Assembly: GCF_963921235.1 (NCBI RefSeq)
Contig: NC_086097.1
Coordinates: 131,380,001-131,444,000, forward strand
Length of the DNA: 64,000 bases
Source: Mobula hypostoma
Taxonomy: Eukaryota
Reading direction: 5' to 3'
The position numbers were made by a program, and so were the translations under genes. Numbering within the stretch: the stretch's first letter is position 1; each line of letters starts with the position of its first letter. The notes beneath the pieces are model-generated. The model ran no database searches, was not told where the DNA came from, and saw nothing but the letters and a program-made list of their open reading frames with translations. Below, one piece after another: positions 3,140-63,266 of the stretch.

Positions 3140-4190
3140 CAAGGTGAAAGTGGCCACATTAAGTAAATATGGAGTTAAAGAAGGCATCTAGCATGCTTGT
3201 CGAGGTGAAAGTGGCCACATTAAGTAGATAGGGAGTGAAGGAAGGCATATAGCATGCTTGTCTTCATTTGTTGGGACACTGAGTATAAGAGTAAGGAAGT
3301 AATGCTGGAGTTAAATAAAACCTTAGTTAGTCAGCACTTGGATTGTTGTGTGCAACGCTGGTTGTCCTATTAAAGGAAGGATGCAGAGACAGAAGAGCCT
3401 TAGCATGCAGTAGCATAGTGGTTTGTGCAATCGCTTTACAATGCCAGTGATCACTGATTGAGATTCTATTCCCACTGCTCTTTGTAAGGAATTTGTACGT
3501 TTTCTCTGCGACCACATAGGTTTCTTTCGGGTGCTCTGGTGCCCTCCCACATGCCAAAAATGTACAGGTTAGGATTAGTAAATTGTTCGCTCTTGCAGGT
3601 TGCAGGTTGCCCTGTCACAATCCTTATACTGCGTTGATTGTTGATGCAAAATTACACACTTTACTGTATGCTTCGATGTACTGTACATGTGACAAATAAA
3701 GCTAATCTTTATCTTTTGCTTTAAATCAGTGGGATGCTGCCTGGATTAGAGGGTATGAGCTATAAGATGATGTTTATAAACCTCATTTGTTTTCTCTGCA
3801 GTGCTGGAGGTTGAGGAGAGACCTACCCAAAGTTTATACAATTATGAGAGGTATAGATGGGTAGACAATCATAATTCTTCCCTATTCTATACCAGAGGAC
3901 ACATATTTAAGGTAAGAAAGGGCCTGTTTTAAGGGTATGTGTGGAGCAAGTTTTTTTTACACAGAGAGAAGTGGCTGGCTGCAATCGGCTGCCCTAGCTG
4001 GCGGTGGAAGCTACAGTAAATGATAGGAGCATTTAAGAGGGTGTTAGACAGATATATGGATATGCAGGGAATGAAGGATATGGATTATATGCTGGCAGAA
4101 GAGATTTAGCTTAGTTTAGCACCGTGTTCAGCACAGACATTGGGGACCAAAGGGCCTGTTTCTCTGCTGTATAGTTTTATGTTCTGTGTT
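3140..4190 (+). mobile_element. CR1-type LINE 3' fragment with nested SINE
   Basis: Degenerate ORF2 tail (LNKTLVSQHLDCCVQ; MLPGLEGMSY) and 3' UTR ending gggcctgtttctctgctgtatagttttatgttctgtgtt. Confidence 0.7.
3400..3720 (+). mobile_element. V-SINE-like tRNA-derived SINE nested in CR1
   Basis: A-box-like tagcatagtgg; V-domain motif ggtttctttcgggtgctctggt..ctcccac; tail tgtacatgtgacaaataaagctaatcttt. Confidence 0.65.
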
Positions 4191-23694: not shown

Positions 23695-26493
23695 GGGCTA
23701 AAGTGCGTGTACTTCAATGCAAGAAGCATCAGAAAGAAAGGTGATGAACTGAGAGCTTGGATACATACATACATGGAATTAAGATGTAGTGGCCATTACA
23801 GAGACTTGGCTGGCACCAGGGCAGGAATGGATTCTCAATATTCCTGGATTTCAGTGCTTTAAAAGGGATAGAGAGGGGAGAAACAGGGGAGGAGGGGTGG
23901 CATTACTGGTCAGGGATACTATTACAGCTACAGAAAGGAAGGGTAGTGTAGCAGGATCCTCTTTTGAGTCAGTATGGATGGAAGTCAGGAACAGGAAGGG
24001 AACAGTTACTCTATTGGGAGTATTCTATAGGCCCCCTGGTAGCAGCAGAGACTCCGAGGAGCAGATTGGGAGTCAGATTTTGGAAAGGTGCAAAAATAAC
24101 AGGGTTGTTATCATGGGTGACTTTAACTTCCCTAATATTGATTGGCACCTGATTAGTTCCAAGGGTTTGAATGGGGCAGAGTTTGTTAAGTGTGTCCAGG
24201 ACGGATTCCTGTCACAGTATGTTGACAGGCCGACCAGGGGGAATGCCATACTAGCTCTAGTACTAGGTAACGAACTGGGTCAGGTCACAGATCTCTCAGT
24301 GGGTGAGCATCTGGGGGACAGTGACCACTGCTCCCTGGCCTTCAGCATTATCATGGAAAAGGATAGAATCAGAGAGGACAGGAAAATTTTTAATTGGGGA
24401 AGGGCAAATTATGAGGCTATAAGGCTAGAACTTGCGGATGTGAATTGGGATGATATTTTTACAGGGAAATGTACTATGGACATGTGGTTGATGTTTAGAG
24501 ATCTTTTCCAGGATGTTAGGGATAAATTTGTCCCAGTGAGGAAGATAAAGAATGGTAGGGTGAAGGAACCATGGGTGACAAGTGAGGTGGAAAATCTAGT
24601 CAGGTGGAAGAAGGCAGCATACATGAGGTTTAGGAAGCAAGGATCAGATGGGTCTATTGAGGAATATAGGGTAGCAAGAAAGCAGCTTAAGAAGGGGCTG
24701 AGAAGAGTAAGAAGGGGGCATGAGAAGGCCTTGGTGAGCAGGGTAAAGGAAAACCCCAAGGCATTCTTCAATTATGTGAAGAAAAAAAGGATGACAGGAG
24801 TGAAGGTAGGACCGATTAGAAATAAAGGTGGGAAGATGTGCCTGGAGGGTGTAGAAGTGAGCGAGGTCCTCAATGAATACTTCTCTTCAGTATTCACCAA
24901 TGAGGGGGAACTTGATGACGGTGAGGACAATATGAGTGAGGTTCATGTTTTGGAGCATGTTGATATTAAGGCAGAGGAGGTGTTGGACTTATTAAAATAC
25001 GTTAGGACAGATAAGTCCCCAGGGCCTGACGGAATATTCCCCAGGCTGCTCCACGAGGCGAGGGAAGAAATTGCTGAGCCTCTGGCTAGGATCTTTATGT
25101 CCTTGTTGTCCACGGGAATGGTACCGGAGAATTGGAGGGAGGTGAAAGTTGTCCCCTTGTTCAAAAAAGGTAGTAGGGATAGTCCGCGTAATTATAGACC
25201 AGTGAGCCTTAGGTCTGTGGTGGGAAAGCTGTTGGAAAAGATTCTTAAAGATAGGATCTATGGGAATTTAGAGAATCATGGTCTGATCAGGGACAGTCAG
25301 CATGGCTTTGTGAAGGGCAGATCGTGTCTAACAAGCCTGATAGAGTACTTTGAGGAGATGATCAGGCATATAGATGAGGGTAGTGCAGTGGATGTGATCT
25401 AGTTGGATTTTAGTAAGGCATTTGACAAGGTTCCACACAGTAGGCTTATTCAGAAAGTCAGAAGGCAGGGATCCAGGGAAGTTTGGCCAGGTGGATTCAG
25501 AATTGGCTTGCCTGCGGAAGGCAGAGGGTGGTGGTGGAGGGAGTACATTCAGAATGAAGGACTGTGACTAGTGGTGTCCCACAAGGATCTGTTCTGGGAC
25601 CTCTACTTTTTGTGATTTTTATTAACGACCTGGATGTTGGGGTAGAAGGGTCTGTTGACAAGTTTGCAGATGACACAAAGGTTGGTGGTGTTGTAGATAG
25701 TGTAGAGGATTGTCAAAGGTTGCAGAGAGACATTGATAGGATTCAGAAGTGGGCTGAGAAGTGGCAGATGGAGTTCAACCCGGAGAAGTGTGAAGTGGTA
25801 CACTTTGGAAGGACAAACTCCAAGGCAGAGTACAAAGTAAATGGCAGGATACTTGGTAGTGTGGAGGAGCAGTGGGATTCGGGGGTATATGTCCACAGAT
25901 CCCTGAAAATTGCCTCACAGGAAGATAGAGTGGTTAAGAAAGCTTATGGGGTGTCAGCTTTCATAAGTCGAGGGACAGAGTTTAAGAATCGCGAGGTAAT
26001 GATACAGCTCTATAAAACTCTTGTTAGGCCACACTTGGAGTACTGTGTCCAGTTCTGGTTGCCTCACTATAGGAAGGACGTGAATGCATTGGAAAGCGTA
26101 CAGAGAAGATTTACCAGGATGCTGCCTGGTTTAGAGAGTATGCATTATGATCAGAGATTAAGGGAGCTAGGGCTTTACTCTTTGGGGAGAAGGAGGATGA
26201 AAGGAGACATGATAGAGGTGTACAAGATATTAAGAGGAATACTTAGAGTGGACAGCCAGTGCCTCTTCCCCAGGGCACCACTGCTCAATACAAGGGGACG
26301 TGGCTTTAAGGTAAGGGGTGGGAAGTTCAAGAGGGATATTAGAGGAAGATTTCTTACTCAGAGAGTGGTTGGTACGTGGAATGCACTGCATGAGTCAGTG
26401 GTGGAGGCAGATACACTAGTGAAATTTAAGAGACTACTAGACAGGTATATGGAGGAATTTAAAGTGGGGGGTTATATGGGAGTCAGGGTTTGA
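23695..26493 (+). pseudogene. CR1 ORF2: APE endonuclease plus reverse transcriptase (frameshifts and stops)
   Basis: YFNARSI, ITETW, GDFN, SDH (APE); [32 protein letters not shown] (RT); broken near 23770-23790 and 25400-25560. Confidence 0.95.
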
Positions 26494-35647: not shown

Positions 35648-38600
35648 TTATGTAGTTAAACCATTTTTCCAGTCCGAATAAAATTGTTCCAACTTATGAT
35701 TAACAGATGCTGTTATCTTCTCTATTTTGTAAATGTCCATTGTAATTTCCATCCACACCTTTAAAGTTGGGCTCTCCTGTGATAACCATTTCCTGGTAAG
35801 GGTCTTTTTACCAGCCACCAGCAGTATATTCATTAAATATTTATCTCTTTTCAACCATTCTTGAGGGATAAACCCAAAATATATGGTCTTACTCTCTAAG
35901 AGTATTTCACATTTAAAGATGTTTTGTAGGGCATTATGTATCCCACTCCAATAGTCTTTGATAATGGGGCATTCCCAGAAATTATGATAATGGATTGCAT
36001 TTTGATTTCCACAATTTCTCCAGCAAACAGGGAGGTTACTATCATAATGGGATTTCTGAGAGGGTGTAATAAAATATCTTATCAAGTTTTTCCACCTGAA
36101 CTCCCTCCACTTCTGTGAACTGGTACACTTCCATTGATACCTCCATATTATTGTCCATTCTTCCTTAGATACTATTATCCCTCCTTCCTTCTCCCATTCT
36201 GTTTTAATGTATGAAGTTGAATGTGTTTTAAGATTTGACAAGCCCTTGTACACGCTTGAAATTATTCTACTACCATTGTCTGAATTATATGCTTTTCTAA
36301 ATAGCTCTATCAGACATGTACTTGCCTTGGTTACATTTTTAACCGACCTATTAACATACTATCACATTTGTAAATACCGATAAAAGTCTTGTTTTGTAAT
36401 AAGTGTTTCTCTTTGAGCATTTCAAAACTGAACAGTGTTCTTTCTTTCATTATATTGCAAATAGCTGTTATTCCTTTAGCTGTCCAGTCCTTAAATCTAG
36501 CATCCAGTTTGTTCGGCGTAAAATCCGAGTCATATGCACACCATTTAAGAATTGCAATGTCTCTCTCTAGTTTATATTCTTTTATAATAGTTTTCCATAT
36601 TTTAAGAGTCCATTTCACCCATGGGTTGTCAATATTATTTATGTAACTTTGTAGGTTGTTATGAGCCAAAATTGCTTGTATGGGGATGGAAAGTATCCTC
36701 TCCTCAATGTTTTACGATTGAGCGTCATGTGATGGGTTGCACCAGCATATCACGACCCTCAACTGTGCTGCAAAATAATAATCTTTAAGAGATGGTAGGC
36801 CCCATCCCCCCTTTTCCTTGGCTAATTGCAAAGTTTTGAGACGAACCCTAGACCTTTTACCTTGCCATATATATCTTGATAGCATCTTGTTCCATTCATT
36901 GAATTGATTTTGGTTAATCTCTATTGGTAGGGTCTGAAAGAGATATAGTAGTCTGGGCAGTATATTCATTTTAATAGATTCAATCCTTGAACTGAGACCA
37001 AGAAAAGTAATTAGGTTCCATCTTGTTATATCTTCCTTAATTTTTTTATATATAGGCTGATAATTGCATTCTGATTATTTTGCCAAATCTTTTGGCATGG
37101 TGATGCCCAAATATTTGACAGACTCTGTTTACCATGCCCAAGGATATCTACTTTCAATTTCTCTTGGTGGGCTATAGTTATATTAAAGTAGTTGGGTTTT
37201 ATCTATGTTGATCTTGTAACCTGATAATTGGCCATATTGTTCAAAGGATTGCATCAATTTAGGTAAAGAGTATGTTGGTTGTCCTAGATAGATCAAAATG
37301 TCATCTGCGTAACTGGCCAATTTATGCTCTGTCCCTTTAATAGTAATTTCCCTGACATTTTCATTTTGTCTGATGTATTGAGCTAATGGTTCCAGATATA
37401 GCGTGAAGAGTAACGGTGACCATGCACAACCCTGTCTCGTGCCTATTTCTAGGGTAAAACTATTAGATAAATATCTATTGATTTTAATCCTGGCAGTAGG
37501 ATTGGCATATAATGCCTGCATAGTTTTAATAATTGTGTCATATAGACCAAATCTATGTAAAACTCTGCAAAGAAATTCCAATTAACCGAATCAAATGCCT
37601 TTTCAGTGTCCACGCTTATCACTATTGCTTCAATTTCATTTTTTAATATGATCCATAATGTGAAGTGTCCTTCGTATATTGTCTTGTGTTTGGCATTGTT
37701 GTATAAAACCTGTCTGATCATTATGTATCAATATGGGTAGAAAACCTTCTAATCGTTTTGGCCATGATAGGGGTAAATATTCTATAATCCACATTAAGAA
37801 TAGATATTGCTCTAAATGACCCACATTCCATTTTATCCTTGCCTTCTTTCGGTATAGCTGAGATTATTGCCTCCTTCCAGCTGGGTGGCATTTGTCCCTT
37901 TCTTAGGGCCCAGTTCAGTGTGGGAAGTAAAACAGGACTTAACTCACTTCTAAACTCTTTATACCACTCTGCCATATATCCACCTGATCCTGCTGACTTG
38001 CTTAATTTAAGCCTACTAATTGCAGTTTTTAGTTCAGCTTCAGTTATGTCAGCAGTCATTGTTTTATCTTGTTCTTTGCTTAAAGCGGGTAACTCTAAAG
38101 AATTCAGGAAGGTGTCAATTTGGGTTATGCTTCCCCCTGGAACTTTTGGAATATAGAGTTTTGTAAAACATTTCAAAAGCTTCTTGAATTTCACTTAGCT
38201 TATTTTTTTTTTATCACTTTTGTTCTTGGATCCCTAATTCTATGAATTGTATTTTCTGCTATCTTTTTTTTTTCAGTTTCCATGCCAGAACGTTCAAAGA
38301 TTTAGATCCACTTTCATAGTGTCTCTGTTTCAGAAACATTAAATTGTTTCTAATTTCTTGTGTAGCCAAACTATTAATTTCATTCCTAATTTTTAAAATT
38401 TCCTCTAGTGTGTCCTGTGCCAAACTCAATTTGTGTTTTTTTCTAGTTCCTTCAGCTTATTTTGTAATCCCTCTAATGTTTTATTCCTTATTTTTTTCTT
38501 ATATGAAGACATCGCTATAATTTTCCCTCTTAAGACAGCCTTCAGAGTATCCCGTAGAATGGGAGGTGAAACCTCTCCATTATCATTAAATTCTAAGTAA

Positions 38601-39402
38601 AGACCAATTTCTTTTTTAATTTGTTCCTTAAAGTAGGGATCATTGAGTAGACTTGAATTTAGTTTCCAAATAGTATTCTTTGTTTGTAGGTCAAAATCAA
38701 CAGATAAATATATAGGTGCATGGTCACTTACATCTATTGTCCCAATTATTTTGTCTCTATCTTTTCCAAATGTTATGAAATAGTCTATTCTTGTACGTAC
38801 ACAATGGGGGGCAGAATAATGAGTGTAATCCCTTCTGTTGGGGAAAAGGTCCCTCCATATGTCAATAAGACCAACATCCTCAAAATGAGTGTTATCTTTC
38901 TTATGTAAGGATTTGTTTCATAAGTTTTTCTATTGGAAGAGTCTAACTTTGGTTATAATTGTAAATTTAAGTCTCCCCCACATATCAAGACACCTTCTGT
39001 TTCTGTTACCATAACATTAGTAATTTTCTGGAAGAAATTAATATCACTTCCTGGGGGTGCGTATATATTCAATAAAGTAACTGGATTTTCATCTATATTT
39101 CCCCTTACCAGAATATATCTGCCCTCCTTACCTTCCATTTCGAATACTTTTTCAAAATTTAGCTTGCTTGAGATGAGAATAGCAACCCCTCTTCTATGTC
39201 CTGATTTATATGACGAGAAAAATAAATTAGTGAAGCTCATTCTCTTTAATTTCCCATGCTCATTATCACTTAAGTGAGTTTCCTGTAAATATACTACATG
39301 GGCTTGTTCTTTTTTCAGTTTTGATAGAATTTTACTGAGCTTGACTGGATTCAACAGCCCATTAACATTAAAAGAAATGAACTTTACTTTGTCCTTAGCC
39401 AT
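35648..39402 (-). pseudogene. L1 ORF2: APE, RT and cysteine-rich C-terminus (multiple frameshifts)
   Basis: [68 protein letters not shown]...HNFWECP. Confidence 0.92.
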
Positions 39403-39860
39403 GTGTATTTATCTGTTAGTATATCATTGAAATTTGCAGAATATAACTTAACTGATCTACTGTATTCCCTGAACGAATAAAAGCCAAGAAACATGAATAA
39501 TAACAAAAAGGTAACGATGGTGTGATTCCAAGGCTGGGGTCTCTGGATGACCCTGGGTTGGGCTAGAAGAAACGTCTAGCAGAGGGGATAGCTCCTCCTA
39601 CCTGTGAATTGAGGGTCCCCGCTGCAGTACCTATAAAAGTAAGTAAAAAAATCTATGTCCATTAAACAAAAATGATTTCCCTGTGTATTCCTCCAATGTA
39701 TATATTCTCATTTAGGTGGGGAAAAAGGAATGAATAAATGAATTTTTAAAAACTGAGTAATATAAAATCCACATTATAATACGTATTTATTGAGATAGGT
39801 ATATCACCGTCTATTTTTGCTTCTGTTTAGTTTATCAGCACTTTTAAATCTAGCCAAACC

Positions 39861-40868
39861 TTATGGCTCTTCTGGAGGAGGCAAGGGCTGTCCTCAGAGA
39901 ACTGACAGTCTCTTCCTAATATCCTTCTCTCGTCCTGTTCCCGTCCCCTGCTTTCTCGGTTCTCTTACTATTTCCCAAGCAGTTCGGGATAACTGCTCAG
40001 CCAGACTTTCCCTTGGTTTGACCACGCTAATGGACAGTCCTCTGTTGTTCATGTCTGTAGCCGTCTCTTCCACCGTCTGGTATAGTCGTATCCCCTCTTG
40101 GTAAAATACCCTCAGTTTAGCAGGGAACAGGGTTTGGAATTTAATCTTTTCTTGCTTTAATATTCGTTTTTCTTTGGAATATTCCTTCCGTTTCTGTAAG
40201 ACCGTTGGGAGGTAATCATGATCAAAGTATATTAACTTCCCGTTCCAAAAAACCCTCTTCTTACCCCAGGCCCTTCGTAGAATCTCTGCCTTGCTCTTGA
40301 ATCGAAGGAACTTAAGTATTATTGAGAGCGGTTTACTTTCTCTGTCTCCGGAGGGCCGTGGGACGAGCGAACAATGTGCCCTCTCAATTTCAATCTCCAT
40401 AGTCTGGGGAATCTCCAGTGCTTCCCACAGCAGCTTGTCTACAAAGTCCATCATCGACAATCCCTCCGCTCCTTTGGGAACATTATAAATCCTGATACTT
40501 TTTCATCACAATCTTCCCTCCTGGTCAAGCAATTTACTTTCCTGTTGATTTAATATTTTTATCATCTTACCTAGTATCTGTTCCACGTTTTGCATGTGAT
40601 CTTCCACCTTCTCAATTCGAGGCTTTGCCACTGCTATTTTCTGATTGACGTTGGCGAGCTCTGACTTCATATCATTGTATATCTGTTTTATATCTTTTTG
40701 GACTTCCCTTATCTCTTCCAAAATCCTTATCATATTTACCGCCTTGTCTGCACGAGGCCCAGCGTCAACCTCGCCGCCATGCGCACGTGTAGGAGAGCCA
40801 CGCGCTGTACCTCTCTCTTCCATAGGCTCCGCAGTGGTGCTTTTTTTATCTCCATTCTTTCTCCCCAT
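39861..40868 (-). pseudogene. L1 ORF1 (coiled coil, RRM, CTD; Transposase_22-like), disrupted
   Basis: MGRKNGDKK start, heptad-rich segment, IEIERAH, IILKFLRF, IYFDHDY, FQTLFPAKLRV. Confidence 0.88.
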
Positions 40869-58687: not shown

Positions 58688-58963
58688 GGCATCATGGTAG
58701 TGGTAGTGGTTAGTACAACGGCTTACAGTACAGGTGACCCGGGTTCAATTCCCGCTGCTGCCTGTAAGGAGTTTGTATGTTTTCCCCACGACCACGTGGG
58801 TTTCCTCCGGATGCTCCGGATTTCCTCCCACGGTCCAAAGACGTACGGGTGAGTAGGTTAATTGGTCAGTGTAAGTTATCCCATGATTAGGCTAGGATTA
58901 AACTGGAGGGAGGATTGCTGGGTGGCATGGCTCGAGGGGCCTATTCCACACTTTAATTCAATA
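58688..58963 (+). mobile_element. V-SINE nested in an older V-SINE
   Basis: B box GGTTCAATTCC; V domain gtgggtttcctccggatgctccggatttcctccca; TSD aaaaaatg at 58680-58687/58964-58971. Confidence 0.85.
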
Positions 58964-59149
58964 AAAAAATGTGCTGTTAGGTTACATGGTCATTACTCTT
59001 CAGCATAATAATGCAGTTAGAAATTCAATAATCTCACATAAGGTGTCAAGGTCACAGAAAGCATCATCAACAGGCAAGTGGAGGTATAAATAAAATGGAA
59101 TATAATGTGGGAAAATATGAACATAGAACATAGAATAGTACAGCACAGT

Positions 59150-59712
59150 GTTGTTCGTCCATCGTTGTCGTCGATGAAGACCTCAACACCATTATGATGG
59201 TGTTGAGACTAACGCTTGATTTGGATTTAAGTGAGGGAGAGTTGCGCAGCGTCAGCCTCACTCTCTCTTCCCAATTCCCATCTGGATCCAGCGGCAAGAC
59301 AAGAGTCGAGTTGGCTGGAGATGGGACTAGGTGCAGTGGATGACCAGGACGTCTTCTGTGTCTTGTCCTGCTCTACACATTCCACGACGCTTACAGAGAC
59401 CGCCTTCTTGACCGTTGGACCTTCCATTGGTCTCATCCGCTCAATCCGCCGGAGTCTGTCTTCACATGCTGGGATAGACAACTCCCTATCACACTGAGGG
59501 TTTGAGACCCGTCGGCTACCGTCACCTGGTTTAGCCGGCTTGTCGAAGCCGTTGCCTGGGGTGTGGCCGCTGTCGCATGCAAACAGCTACGGGGAGCCAC
59601 AGGTGAGAGCTGAGTGCCAGGTGGGGACCAAAGGTGGACTAACCGCCCTGAAAAGGACGCGACATGTTCCCCCACCAGAGGTGCTACCCCTCCCTGATAC
59701 CCCATACACCCC
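59150..59712 (-). mobile_element. Non-autonomous RTE-derived bipartite retroposon (~560 bp), apparently full length
   Basis: TSD (c)agcacagt at 59141-59149/59712-59720; CpG-rich; RTE-like 3' end ...gatggacgaacaac; from memory resembles marsupial RTE-derived short elements (ttggatttaagtgaggga...cagcctcact). Confidence 0.8.
59522..59712 (-). ncRNA. Putative HDV-like self-cleaving ribozyme
   Basis: Hand fold: P1 GGGGUGU/ACACCCC, P2 UCACCUG/CAGGUGA, P3 GGC/GCC, L3 starting UCC, P4 CGGCUU-cgac-AAGCCG, J4/2 GCUAAA. Confidence 0.65.
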
Positions 59713-61689
59713 AGCACAGTACAGGCCCTTCGGCCCACAATGTTGTGCCAACTCTCAAACCCTGTCTCCCATATAAGCCCCCACCTTAAATTCCTCCATA
59801 TACCTGTCTAGTAGTCTCTTAAACTTCGCTAGTGTATCTGCCTCCACCACTGACTCAGGCAATGCATTCCACTCACCAGCCACACTCTGAGTAAAAAACC
59901 TTCCTCTAATATCCCCCTTGAACTTCCCTCCCCTTACCTTAAAGCTATGTCCTCTTGTATTGAGCAGTGGTGCCCTGGGGCAGAGGCGCTGGCTATCCAC
60001 TCTATCTATTCCTCTTATTATCTTGTACACCTCTATCATGTCTCCTCTCATCCTCCTTCTCTCCAAAGAGTAAAGCCCTAGCTCCCTTAATCTCTGATCA
60101 TAATGCATACTCTCTAAACCAGGCAACATCCTGGTAAATCTCCTCTGTACCCTTTCTAATGCTTCCACATCCTTCCTATAGTGAGGCGACCAGAACTGGA
60201 CACAGTACTCCAAGTGTGGCCTAACCAGAGTTTTATAGAGCTGCATCATTACATCACGACTCTTAAACTCTATCCCTCGACTTATGAAAGCTAACACCCC
60301 ATAAGCTTTCTTAACTACCCTATCTACCTGTGAGGCAACTTTCAGGGATCTGTGGACATGTACCCCCAGATCCCTCTGCTCCTCCACACTACCAAGTATC
60401 CTGCCATTTACTTTGTACTCTGCCTTGGAGTTTGTCCTTCCAAAGTGTACCACCTCACACTTCTCCGGGTTGAACTCCATCTGCCACTTCTCAGCCCACT
60501 TCTGCATCCTAGCAATGTCCCTCTGCAATCTTTGACAATCCTCTACACTATCTACAACACCACCAACCTTGTGTCGTCTGCAAACTTGCCAACCCACACT
60601 TCTAGCCCCACATCCATTGGCTTCCATTGAGATCACTGACTTTGGTGAAAATAATGAGTATTTAGCTTAGTACTTTCCTTTAGGTAAGAATCAAAAGAGG
60701 GACTGATGGGCATGTGAGAGAAAGTAAGTTTCAAGGCCACAAGAGAACTGGAAATGGGACAGATGAAATTGCTCTGCTAGCAGTCATCACAGATATAGTG
60801 GGCTGAATAGTCTCTTTCAATCTTGTAGTAATTAAGTACAATGCCAATCCATTACAAGCAGCTTAGCCACAGAGGAGTTAGGACAGTAAGGTTTACTATC
60901 CCTCGTCTTGCTGCCGCTGGTTGCCTGCTGCCTGCTCCGATAACAGGATGGAACATGTCAGAGATTTCCATTCGATGTGTTTGGAAGATGGTGAAAGAGT
61001 TACAGAGTGAGCAGACACAGTGAGTGCAAGTGAGTGTATGACAGTGTGGACTGAAAGGCTGATGGGCTTATGATGGTGCTGCATCTCTCTAACTGGGAAT
61101 TCGTTCACACATACTGCGATACAGTGTAAAGTTGTGTTTGACAATGCAATCTGGACAGATCGTTCCAAACCTAAGTATATTGACGTAGTACAAAAAGGAA
61201 AACAATGACAGAATACAGAATATAGCTGTAACAGCTATAGAAGAGGTACAATGCAGGTGGACAAATAAGGTGCAGGGTTATGATGAGGTAGAACTCAGAG
61301 ATCAAGAATTTATCTTTACTGCACAAGAGGGCTATTCAAGAATCTTACAGAAGCTGAGTGGCACATGATTTAACTCTAATAATGAATTCAGAAATCTTTG
61401 GATTCAAGAGGCCTTATGTGATTCTTGCGGACTGTGAGGGCCAGTGTCTCGGATTTCAGCGCCAGCCAGTGGTACTAATGCAATTTGAAGTTTTGGTACA
61501 CATTGTATTCCAAAGTTCAGCACCATTGATCTGATAGCTTTAATGGATTGAACTGAATTTTGCCTTGGAAAATGAAGAAGACATGAAATAGATAAATCAC
61601 TCTCAACCTGTGATGCTATTCTAAGCACAGTAGAAGTGTTATGAGGTTTCTACATGATTATATAGACCTACTGTTGAAGTCAGAAGTTT

Positions 61690-62300: not shown

Positions 62301-63266
<966 letters not shown>

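Follow-up and report, generated by a model that had tools for sequence, protein, structure and literature searches.

The window, by which we mean the whole 64,000-nt stretch of Mobula hypostoma DNA that was analysed, carries on its minus strand, from 59712 to 59150, a TSD-bounded 563-nt copy of a high-copy element that we call family A. The TSD is 8 bp long (59720-59713 and 59149-59142), or 9 bp if G1, the first base of the element, is counted. The initial annotation had described a TSD-bounded insert with its motifs in the order of an HDV ribozyme, and every one of these motifs was found in place. The features are as follows:

59721..60666, minus strand: host repeat, which we take to be the 3' end of a CR1-type LINE, in the same orientation, its tail interrupted by the element
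59713..59720, minus strand: TSD, 5' copy, 8 bp
59150..59712, minus strand: whole non-autonomous bipartite RTE copy (family A), 563 nt
59706..59712, minus strand: P1 5' strand; predicted cleavage immediately 5' of the G at 59712
59610..59705, minus strand: J1/2, 96 nt, with a basal helix (59702-59693 with 59621-59612) and a G-to-A decay at 59698 in the window copy
59599..59609, minus strand: P2 5' strand
59596..59598, minus strand: P3 5' strand
59589..59595, minus strand: L3 core
59568..59588, minus strand: 21-nt insert in L3, able to form a hairpin of 4-6 bp; family D lacks it
59558..59567, minus strand: P3 3' strand and P1 3' strand
59556..59557, minus strand: P1.1 3' strand; 59557 is A here and G in the family majority
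59536..59551, minus strand: P4, 6 bp; three pairs changed on both sides among families A, B and C
59531..59535, minus strand: J4/2; the C at 59534 is the predicted catalytic base
59519..59530, minus strand: P2 3' strand; bulged C at 59529, and G-to-C at 59521 in the window copy
59194..59518, minus strand: remainder of the retained RTE 5' UTR
59180..59209, minus strand: junction hairpin, with its 5' UTR arm at 59209-59197, its 3' UTR arm at 59192-59180 and the deletion joint in the 4-nt loop
59150..59194, minus strand: RTE 3' end, a terminal stem-loop (59176-59160) and an AAC tail
59142..59149, minus strand: TSD, 3' copy

Family A and its autonomous parent

Family A has 4791 candidate places in its own 3.48-Gb genome, whose repeats seem to resemble those of cartilaginous fish, and the 40 that were scored are full length and 95-96% identical; 84 distinct copies, pooled from three genome searches, were available for the counts given below. 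Its copies possess TSDs of mostly 7-13 bp, variable AAC or CAAC tails, 5' truncations and 5' inversions, and the family has therefore spread by target-primed reverse transcription. Divergence from the family majority is 8.4% at CpG sites versus 1.6% elsewhere. Over the first 200 nt, three positions (59698, 59557 and 59521) distinguish the window copy from the majority; two other copies (L004 and L022) equal the majority over positions 1-195. Family A or its relatives are present in contigs from 11 organisms, and we found no report of the family in the text of the open-access literature.

The autonomous parent is a 4.1-kb RTE in the same genome with a single APE+RT ORF, and the element is the first ~518 nt of this parent joined to the last ~45 nt with an overlap of about one base. 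The evidence for this is a long element (L352) with a broken APE+RT frame, which matches majority positions 3-524 at 96.6% and then, ~3.5 kb further on, positions 518-553 again, so that the short element represents the two ends of the parent joined. The 3' match (518-559 or 518-562) is also found in L353-L357 and L359, and nearly all of 79 copies have one type of joint. With the 5' and 3' ends of one parent joined, no ORF and a unit that is mobile, family A is a bipartite non-autonomous LINE; Rfam and a motif scan revealed no tRNA, 5S or 7SL head and no A-box or B-box of a Pol III SINE in the element.

The parent has the organization of an RTE, that is, one ORF encoding APE and then RT, no ORF1, a short 3' UTR and a microsatellite tail. 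By eye, the segments of the element match positions 147-292 and 3854-3893 of RTE-3_AMi and the marsupial WALLSI, with similarity also to segments of RTE-1_PSi and RTE-3_PM (supplement of PMC5786205, used here in part). These matches and the shared ends of the parent bear out the RTE origin that had been proposed from the window alone. All family A ORFs that we saw were broken and no intact one was found, but the sibling family D encodes a 1069-aa APE+RT protein with 50-74% identity, measured in pieces, to those broken ORFs of A. A protein homolog search returned no clade names among its matches.

The lead to the long genomic elements was the continuation of a metagenome contig (L199; OFER01047403.1), which is 74% identical to majority positions 26-505 and then diverges. 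A first metagenome pattern search had given 0 matches and a second gave 120; of the 80 examined, 79 were due to chance and one, L199, was a true relative. In this relative (L199, 608-1083) the L3 insert is present, P4 is shortened and the P1 5' strand is missing; it is probably a decayed copy in the host DNA of another animal. A search of viral contigs found nothing.

Several other searches for the parent can be recorded briefly. RTEs of the DUF6451 type were rejected, since 50 loci showed no DNA similarity to the element, and a search for Exo_endo_phos_2 yielded no parent among 30 loci. One unrelated RTE-like lineage (L121:3260-6313, minus strand; APE, RT and DUF6451) has a 1018-aa open frame and, again, no DNA similarity. 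When the frame that is open in the 3' half of the element was used as a protein query, there was no match, which is weak evidence; in the parent, this frame belongs to the 5' UTR.

Two older non-autonomous families, B and C, came to light through a variant that occurs in contigs from other organisms. They occupy 835 places, are 69-83% identical over positions 1-380, and possess the same ribozyme head (1-380) with different 3' parts (B: L297, L300, L303-L305, L308-L310, L318 and L320; C: the others of L292-L321). No parents of families B and C were found.

The HDV-like fold

The first ~194 nt of the element are the 5' end of the parent and fit an HDV-like double pseudoknot. P1 (7 bp; 59712-59706 with 59564-59558), P2 (59606-59600 with 59528-59522), P3 (3 bp; 59598-59596 with 59567-59565) and P4 follow one another in the nested order of that fold. 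In the family majority, P2 has 10 bp plus a U-A pair behind the bulged C, J4/2 reads GCUAA, and P1.1, formed between the CC of L3 and the GG after P1, has 2 bp, as against 1 bp in the window copy. The predicted U...G reverse wobble of L3 has the canonical spacing and the C of J4/2 has an A two bases on, as the A, B and C majorities all show; among the family D places, the L3 G is kept in 5/7 and the J4/2 C in 7/7. The L3 core includes what we take to be U20, C21, C22 and G25 in HDV numbering, and these, both G residues of P1.1 and the J4/2 C are constant in the A, B and C majorities while neighbouring L3 and J4/2 bases vary.

A descriptor of the HDV fold, composed after the element was seen and tolerant of as many as 30 nt following the L3 G, matched once on the two strands of the 64-kb window (G1 at 59712, C at 59534), in 0/40 dinucleotide shuffles of the window and in 0/5000 shuffles of the 200-nt region. 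It still fits 22/39 of the copies that begin at G1, with the majority G, and misses 4/4 family D copies tested (each of them defective) as well as the CpG-decayed majority of family C. A comparison with the Rfam HDV-type models had been suggested at the outset, and the Rfam scan of the window gave no HDV-type match, presumably because the long J1/2 and the L3 insert lie outside these models.

The pairing was counted over 20 copies of families A, B and C, and 96.3% of 800 cells pair, versus 41-48% in slid registers; these copies are related, so shuffle counts should not be read as probabilities. Two C rows and five D rows were excluded from the count, the latter because MAFFT had misaligned their core, and D was compared by eye. 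The proposed search for covariation in P1-P4 gave a clear result in P4, where 3/6 pairs show a double-sided change among A, B and C, and one changed P2 pair, judged by eye, between A and D; within the 20 copies there was no family-level double-sided change in P1, P2, P3 or the L3 hairpin. The B and C copies had been selected by a pattern that fixes the P2 5' strand, the P3 5' strand, L3 and the 5' arm of the hairpin, and the invariance of these parts in B and C is therefore built in. An A at position 6 of P1, found uncompensated in 9/56 copies, counts against a strict need for P1.

The fold almost certainly has HDV-like ancestry. It is extremely improbable that we are dealing with a chance pattern in a G+C-rich repeat, or with a Vingi/Ingi rather than an RTE origin: the miss in Rfam and a possibly similar L3 insert in a Vingi element speak for this, but the shuffled sequences gave no match, family D has a canonical core, and a parent was found and matched to published RTE segments. 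A Vingi-type ORF-start pattern gave one ordinary copy, and a Vingi origin was rejected once the RTE parent had been found.

L3 departs from the short loop of 7-8 nt, a length norm rather than a part of the catalytic definition, and the difference marks a variant. The loop measures 28 nt in A, of which 22 follow the G, 26 nt in B and 7 nt in D; since D is a related RTE family, the 21-nt insert, placed behind the conserved L3 G, is a real difference between lineages. The initial annotation had spoken of a hairpin inserted in L3. The insert stands, but the hairpin (z = -0.19, no double-sided change) is only plausible as a predicted structure. Its loop (59580-59575) is a self-complementary hexamer in A and C, lost in most B copies, and one might speculate that it could allow loop-loop dimers. 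In the text of the open-access literature, we came across no HDV-like ribozyme described with an L3 insert, and we regard this insert as new here; it widens the HDV fold and would mean that ribozyme searches undercount.

The insert may instead have abolished or impaired ribozyme activity in A, B and C, with the fold serving as a protective or protein-binding module and the RNA being trimmed otherwise, an explanation that we consider quite unlikely. Such a loss would agree with an L3 hairpin that is not significant alone, with a second P1 5' strand at positions 10-16 that may compete, and with the L004 core, which without its P1 5' strand folds the P3 5' strand onto J4/2 and hides the catalytic C in the prediction of a program that excludes pseudoknots; it would not be expected to leave the catalytic bases listed above untouched while their neighbours change, nor to let three insert-bearing families reach hundreds or thousands of places and begin at the P1 strand. 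On the modelled fold, copies close to the majority would probably cleave in vitro.

In all four families, the J1/2 of 96-99 nt folds with short linkers and a basal helix that includes the second P1 5' strand (positions 10-16); in the window copy, the folding z is -1.1. A J1/2 of ~100 nt had been called atypical, a view that gives way to precedents: the long structured J1/2 domain of drz-Agam-2-1 speeds cleavage (PMC4908430, in part), and the J1/2 loops of R2 measure 216-498 nt (PMC3774820, in part).

The window copy itself is a poor representative. The A that follows P1, at 59557, occurs in 7/66 family copies where the majority has G, and the guess that it reflects CpG decay is confirmed by this majority and by the high divergence of CpG sites. 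This A removes one of the two P1.1 pairs, and the flanking U and C are able to pair with 59557-59556, which would lengthen P1 by two pairs; P1 extension is described as harmful to P1.1 (PMC3185411, in part). For these two reasons, the lost pair and the flank that can extend P1, the predicted ribozyme of the window copy is quite probably weak or dead.

5' ends of copies and the comparison with family D

Among the 84 distinct copies of family A, 39 begin at G1 and 27 further ones at positions 2-9. When copies were chosen by their last 121 nt only, 15 of 29 were found to begin at 1-9 (6 of these exactly at G1), 13 were truncated at 48-406, and one had an inverted piece starting at 1. Upstream of the 66 copies with a start at 1-9, the flanking sequences have nothing in common except one weak 28-nt AT-rich match. 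G1 is therefore a hard outer limit and not the exact start of all copies; the claim that the element starts exactly at G1 applies to the window copy and to the 39, and fails for the other 27. A T precedes G1 in 31/39 copies versus 20/43 other junctions (p = 0.003). In R2, bases are added as the RT runs off the template (PMC3774820, in part), and such additions would explain the T excess, as would an RNA starting one base upstream.

Family D offers a natural comparison. Its core, seen in 7 places, has a 7-nt L3, a U at the end of P1, a 12-bp P2 and GCGAA in J4/2. Host sequence replaces all or part of the ribozyme in 16/21 copies, joined right behind an AG of the element in 11 + 3 of them and behind a 4-nt P1 in 2; the other 5/21 are truncated, and an intact P1 was seen in 0/21. 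TSDs lie outside the host extension in L362 (14 bp), L367 (9 bp), L363 (11 bp) and L374 (12 bp, 611 nt upstream), and in one TSD check the 3' ends were covered in 2/5 copies. Five of the 7 core places have a cut P1 and share upstream DNA, and the remaining 2 begin at the P1 strand with unrelated flanks, one of them having at its start a 9-bp duplication with one mismatch (by eye).

The host sequences themselves are of several kinds. A GC-rich 5' extension is present in 11/21 D copies (L323, L325, L327, L336, L337, L339-L341, L343, L344, L349) and in L385, where (1-470) it begins with a Glyoxalase_4 domain frame, which we presume to be a methylmalonyl-CoA epimerase. An OTUD5-like coding stretch (E = 0.005) lies behind an AG inside P4 in L322, L334 and L338 (~790-1010, element orientation) and looks like a host first exon that splicing had joined to a source copy within an intron and that then moved with the element. 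In L362:407-850, L367:362-745 and L374-L376, the TSDs enclose 390-610 nt of upstream host DNA that includes a minisatellite, next to a P1 of 4 nt.

Host sequence inside the TSDs is what read-through transcription combined with self-cleavage predicts for copies that have a broken ribozyme or have lost it by splicing. Where the head is intact, families begin at P1, and ribozyme-less D copies carry host exons or upstream DNA, a contrast that supports host read-through and self-cleavage from within the genome. Release from read-through transcripts, as the initial annotation had suggested, thus gains indirect support from D, and homology would carry it over to A.

One should also consider an internal RNA polymerase II promoter that sets the 5' end, the HDV-like fold being a second function or a relic. 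Both mechanisms would give a fixed 5' end, copies bearing the P1 mismatch still begin at G1, and G1, in a run of four G, could be cap-derived; moreover, L1Tc/NARTc hold a promoter and a ribozyme in one 77-nt stretch (PMC3185411, in part). We nevertheless think such a promoter unlikely, given that the host exons and upstream DNA inside the TSDs of ribozyme-less D copies point to host promoters, that P4 has double-sided changes among families, and that the element has no TATA, A-box or B-box match and no tRNA head. By this reasoning, the element would be promoter-less.

The UTR helix and relation to known elements

The two retained parts can pair with each other in the parent: the last bases of the 5' part are complementary to the first bases of the 3' part, with ~3.5 kb between them. 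The resulting duplex has 13-14 bp, and 87% of 14 positions pair in 7 copies of A and 90% in 10 copies of D, versus 15-48% in slid registers. Five pairs are changed on both sides between A and D, and most D copies have one mismatch; an unanchored longest-run test was significant in 3/17 of these decayed copies. In the short element, the same arms form the junction hairpin (z = -6.1). Similar complementarity was seen by eye in RTE-3_AMi/WALLSI1A, RTE-11_AMi/SINE2_Gav and BovB/BovA2, although in BovA2 the joint lies away from the helix tip (supplement of PMC5786205, in part).

We found no report of an RTE UTR helix in the text of the open-access literature, including the portions of PMC7245038, PMC13708176 and PMC6007223 that were available, and a UTR duplex with double-sided changes and a deletion at its tip is new here. 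We infer that it has a role in template recognition and in the deletion. Tentatively, and with somewhat less than even confidence, we would join two propositions: that RTE RNAs clasp both UTRs through a conserved 9-14 bp helix, located just upstream of the terminal stem-loop and recognised by the protein, and that HDV-like ribozymes tolerate a hairpin in the catalytic L3. If this is true, the RTE protein recognises the UTR helix among other features; this would account for the need of RTE-mobilised SINEs for a 5' as well as a 3' piece, and for the recurrence of deletions at one point in ray-like fish, marsupials and crocodilians; ribozymes with an L3 hairpin would be a class missed by current descriptors and Rfam models. 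Kojima 2018 (PMC5786205, in part) leaves open why few clades make bipartite derivatives, and the helix is a testable answer. RTE UTRs serve as template modules in gene-writing systems (PMC13708176, in part).

Family A is very probably an internally deleted non-autonomous RTE with a self-cleaving head that is mobilised in trans. Source copies would be transcribed within host transcripts, and the ribozyme, its 21-nt insert bulging out after the conserved U-G of L3 and tolerated there, would cut 5' of G1 and free the unit RNA. An RTE protein acting in trans would bind the 3' end, probably along with the 5' UTR/3' UTR helix, and copy this RNA into new sites. The deletion would have arisen where the long-range helix brings both UTRs together, and the short element, deleted at the helix tip, would for that reason still contain the helix, now in the form of a local hairpin.

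LINEs that have an internal deletion and a ribozyme head are already known. Kojima 2018 described non-autonomous RTEs of the bipartite kind with a retained 5' end, and also stated that ribozymes occur at the 5' ends of RTEs (PMC5786205, in part); a review states the same (PMC6765202, in part), and both cite the RTE HDV-like ribozymes of Ruminski 2011. Like WALLSI3, RTESINE2, MAR4_MD, RTE-N2_Lch and Bov-A, family A consists of a 5' UTR part and a 3' end with no ORF and no tRNA head, and the joint of WALLSI1A/WALLSI2 relative to RTE-3_AMi (147-292, 3854-3893) is, by eye, at the same place. In the portion of PMC5786205 used here, no ribozyme structure and no pairing between the two parts is given for the bipartite RTEs, whereas family A keeps a complete 5' end with a modelled ribozyme.

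The R2 SIDEs of Drosophila (PMC3414825) and NARTc of Trypanosoma cruzi (PMC3185411), both cited in part, are likewise internally deleted LINEs with an HDV-like ribozyme at the 5' end that borrow the protein of their parent. Their cleavage was shown in vitro, whereas the family A ribozyme is predicted; they belong to the clades R2 and Ingi, and the SIDEs are site-specific in 28S rDNA, whereas family A is dispersed, RTE-derived and high-copy, with an L3 insert. A similar structure is that of drz-Agam-2-1 (PMC4908430, in part), which has a nested double pseudoknot, a long helix-closed J1/2, short linkers and an extended P2. From it and other RTE ribozymes, family A differs by the 21-nt L3 insert, a G1-C instead of a G-U pair, and the bulged C at the base of P2.

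Other probable mobile sequences lie elsewhere in the window. At 58690-58940 it contains a tRNA-like SINE head with weak mascRNA/tmRNA matches in Rfam, presumably resembling an elasmobranch SINE. Further frames were noted, which we take to be a Tc1/mariner transposase (62535-63266, plus strand), an L1-type LINE (37721-40502, minus strand) and a CR1-type LINE (23783-26493, plus strand).
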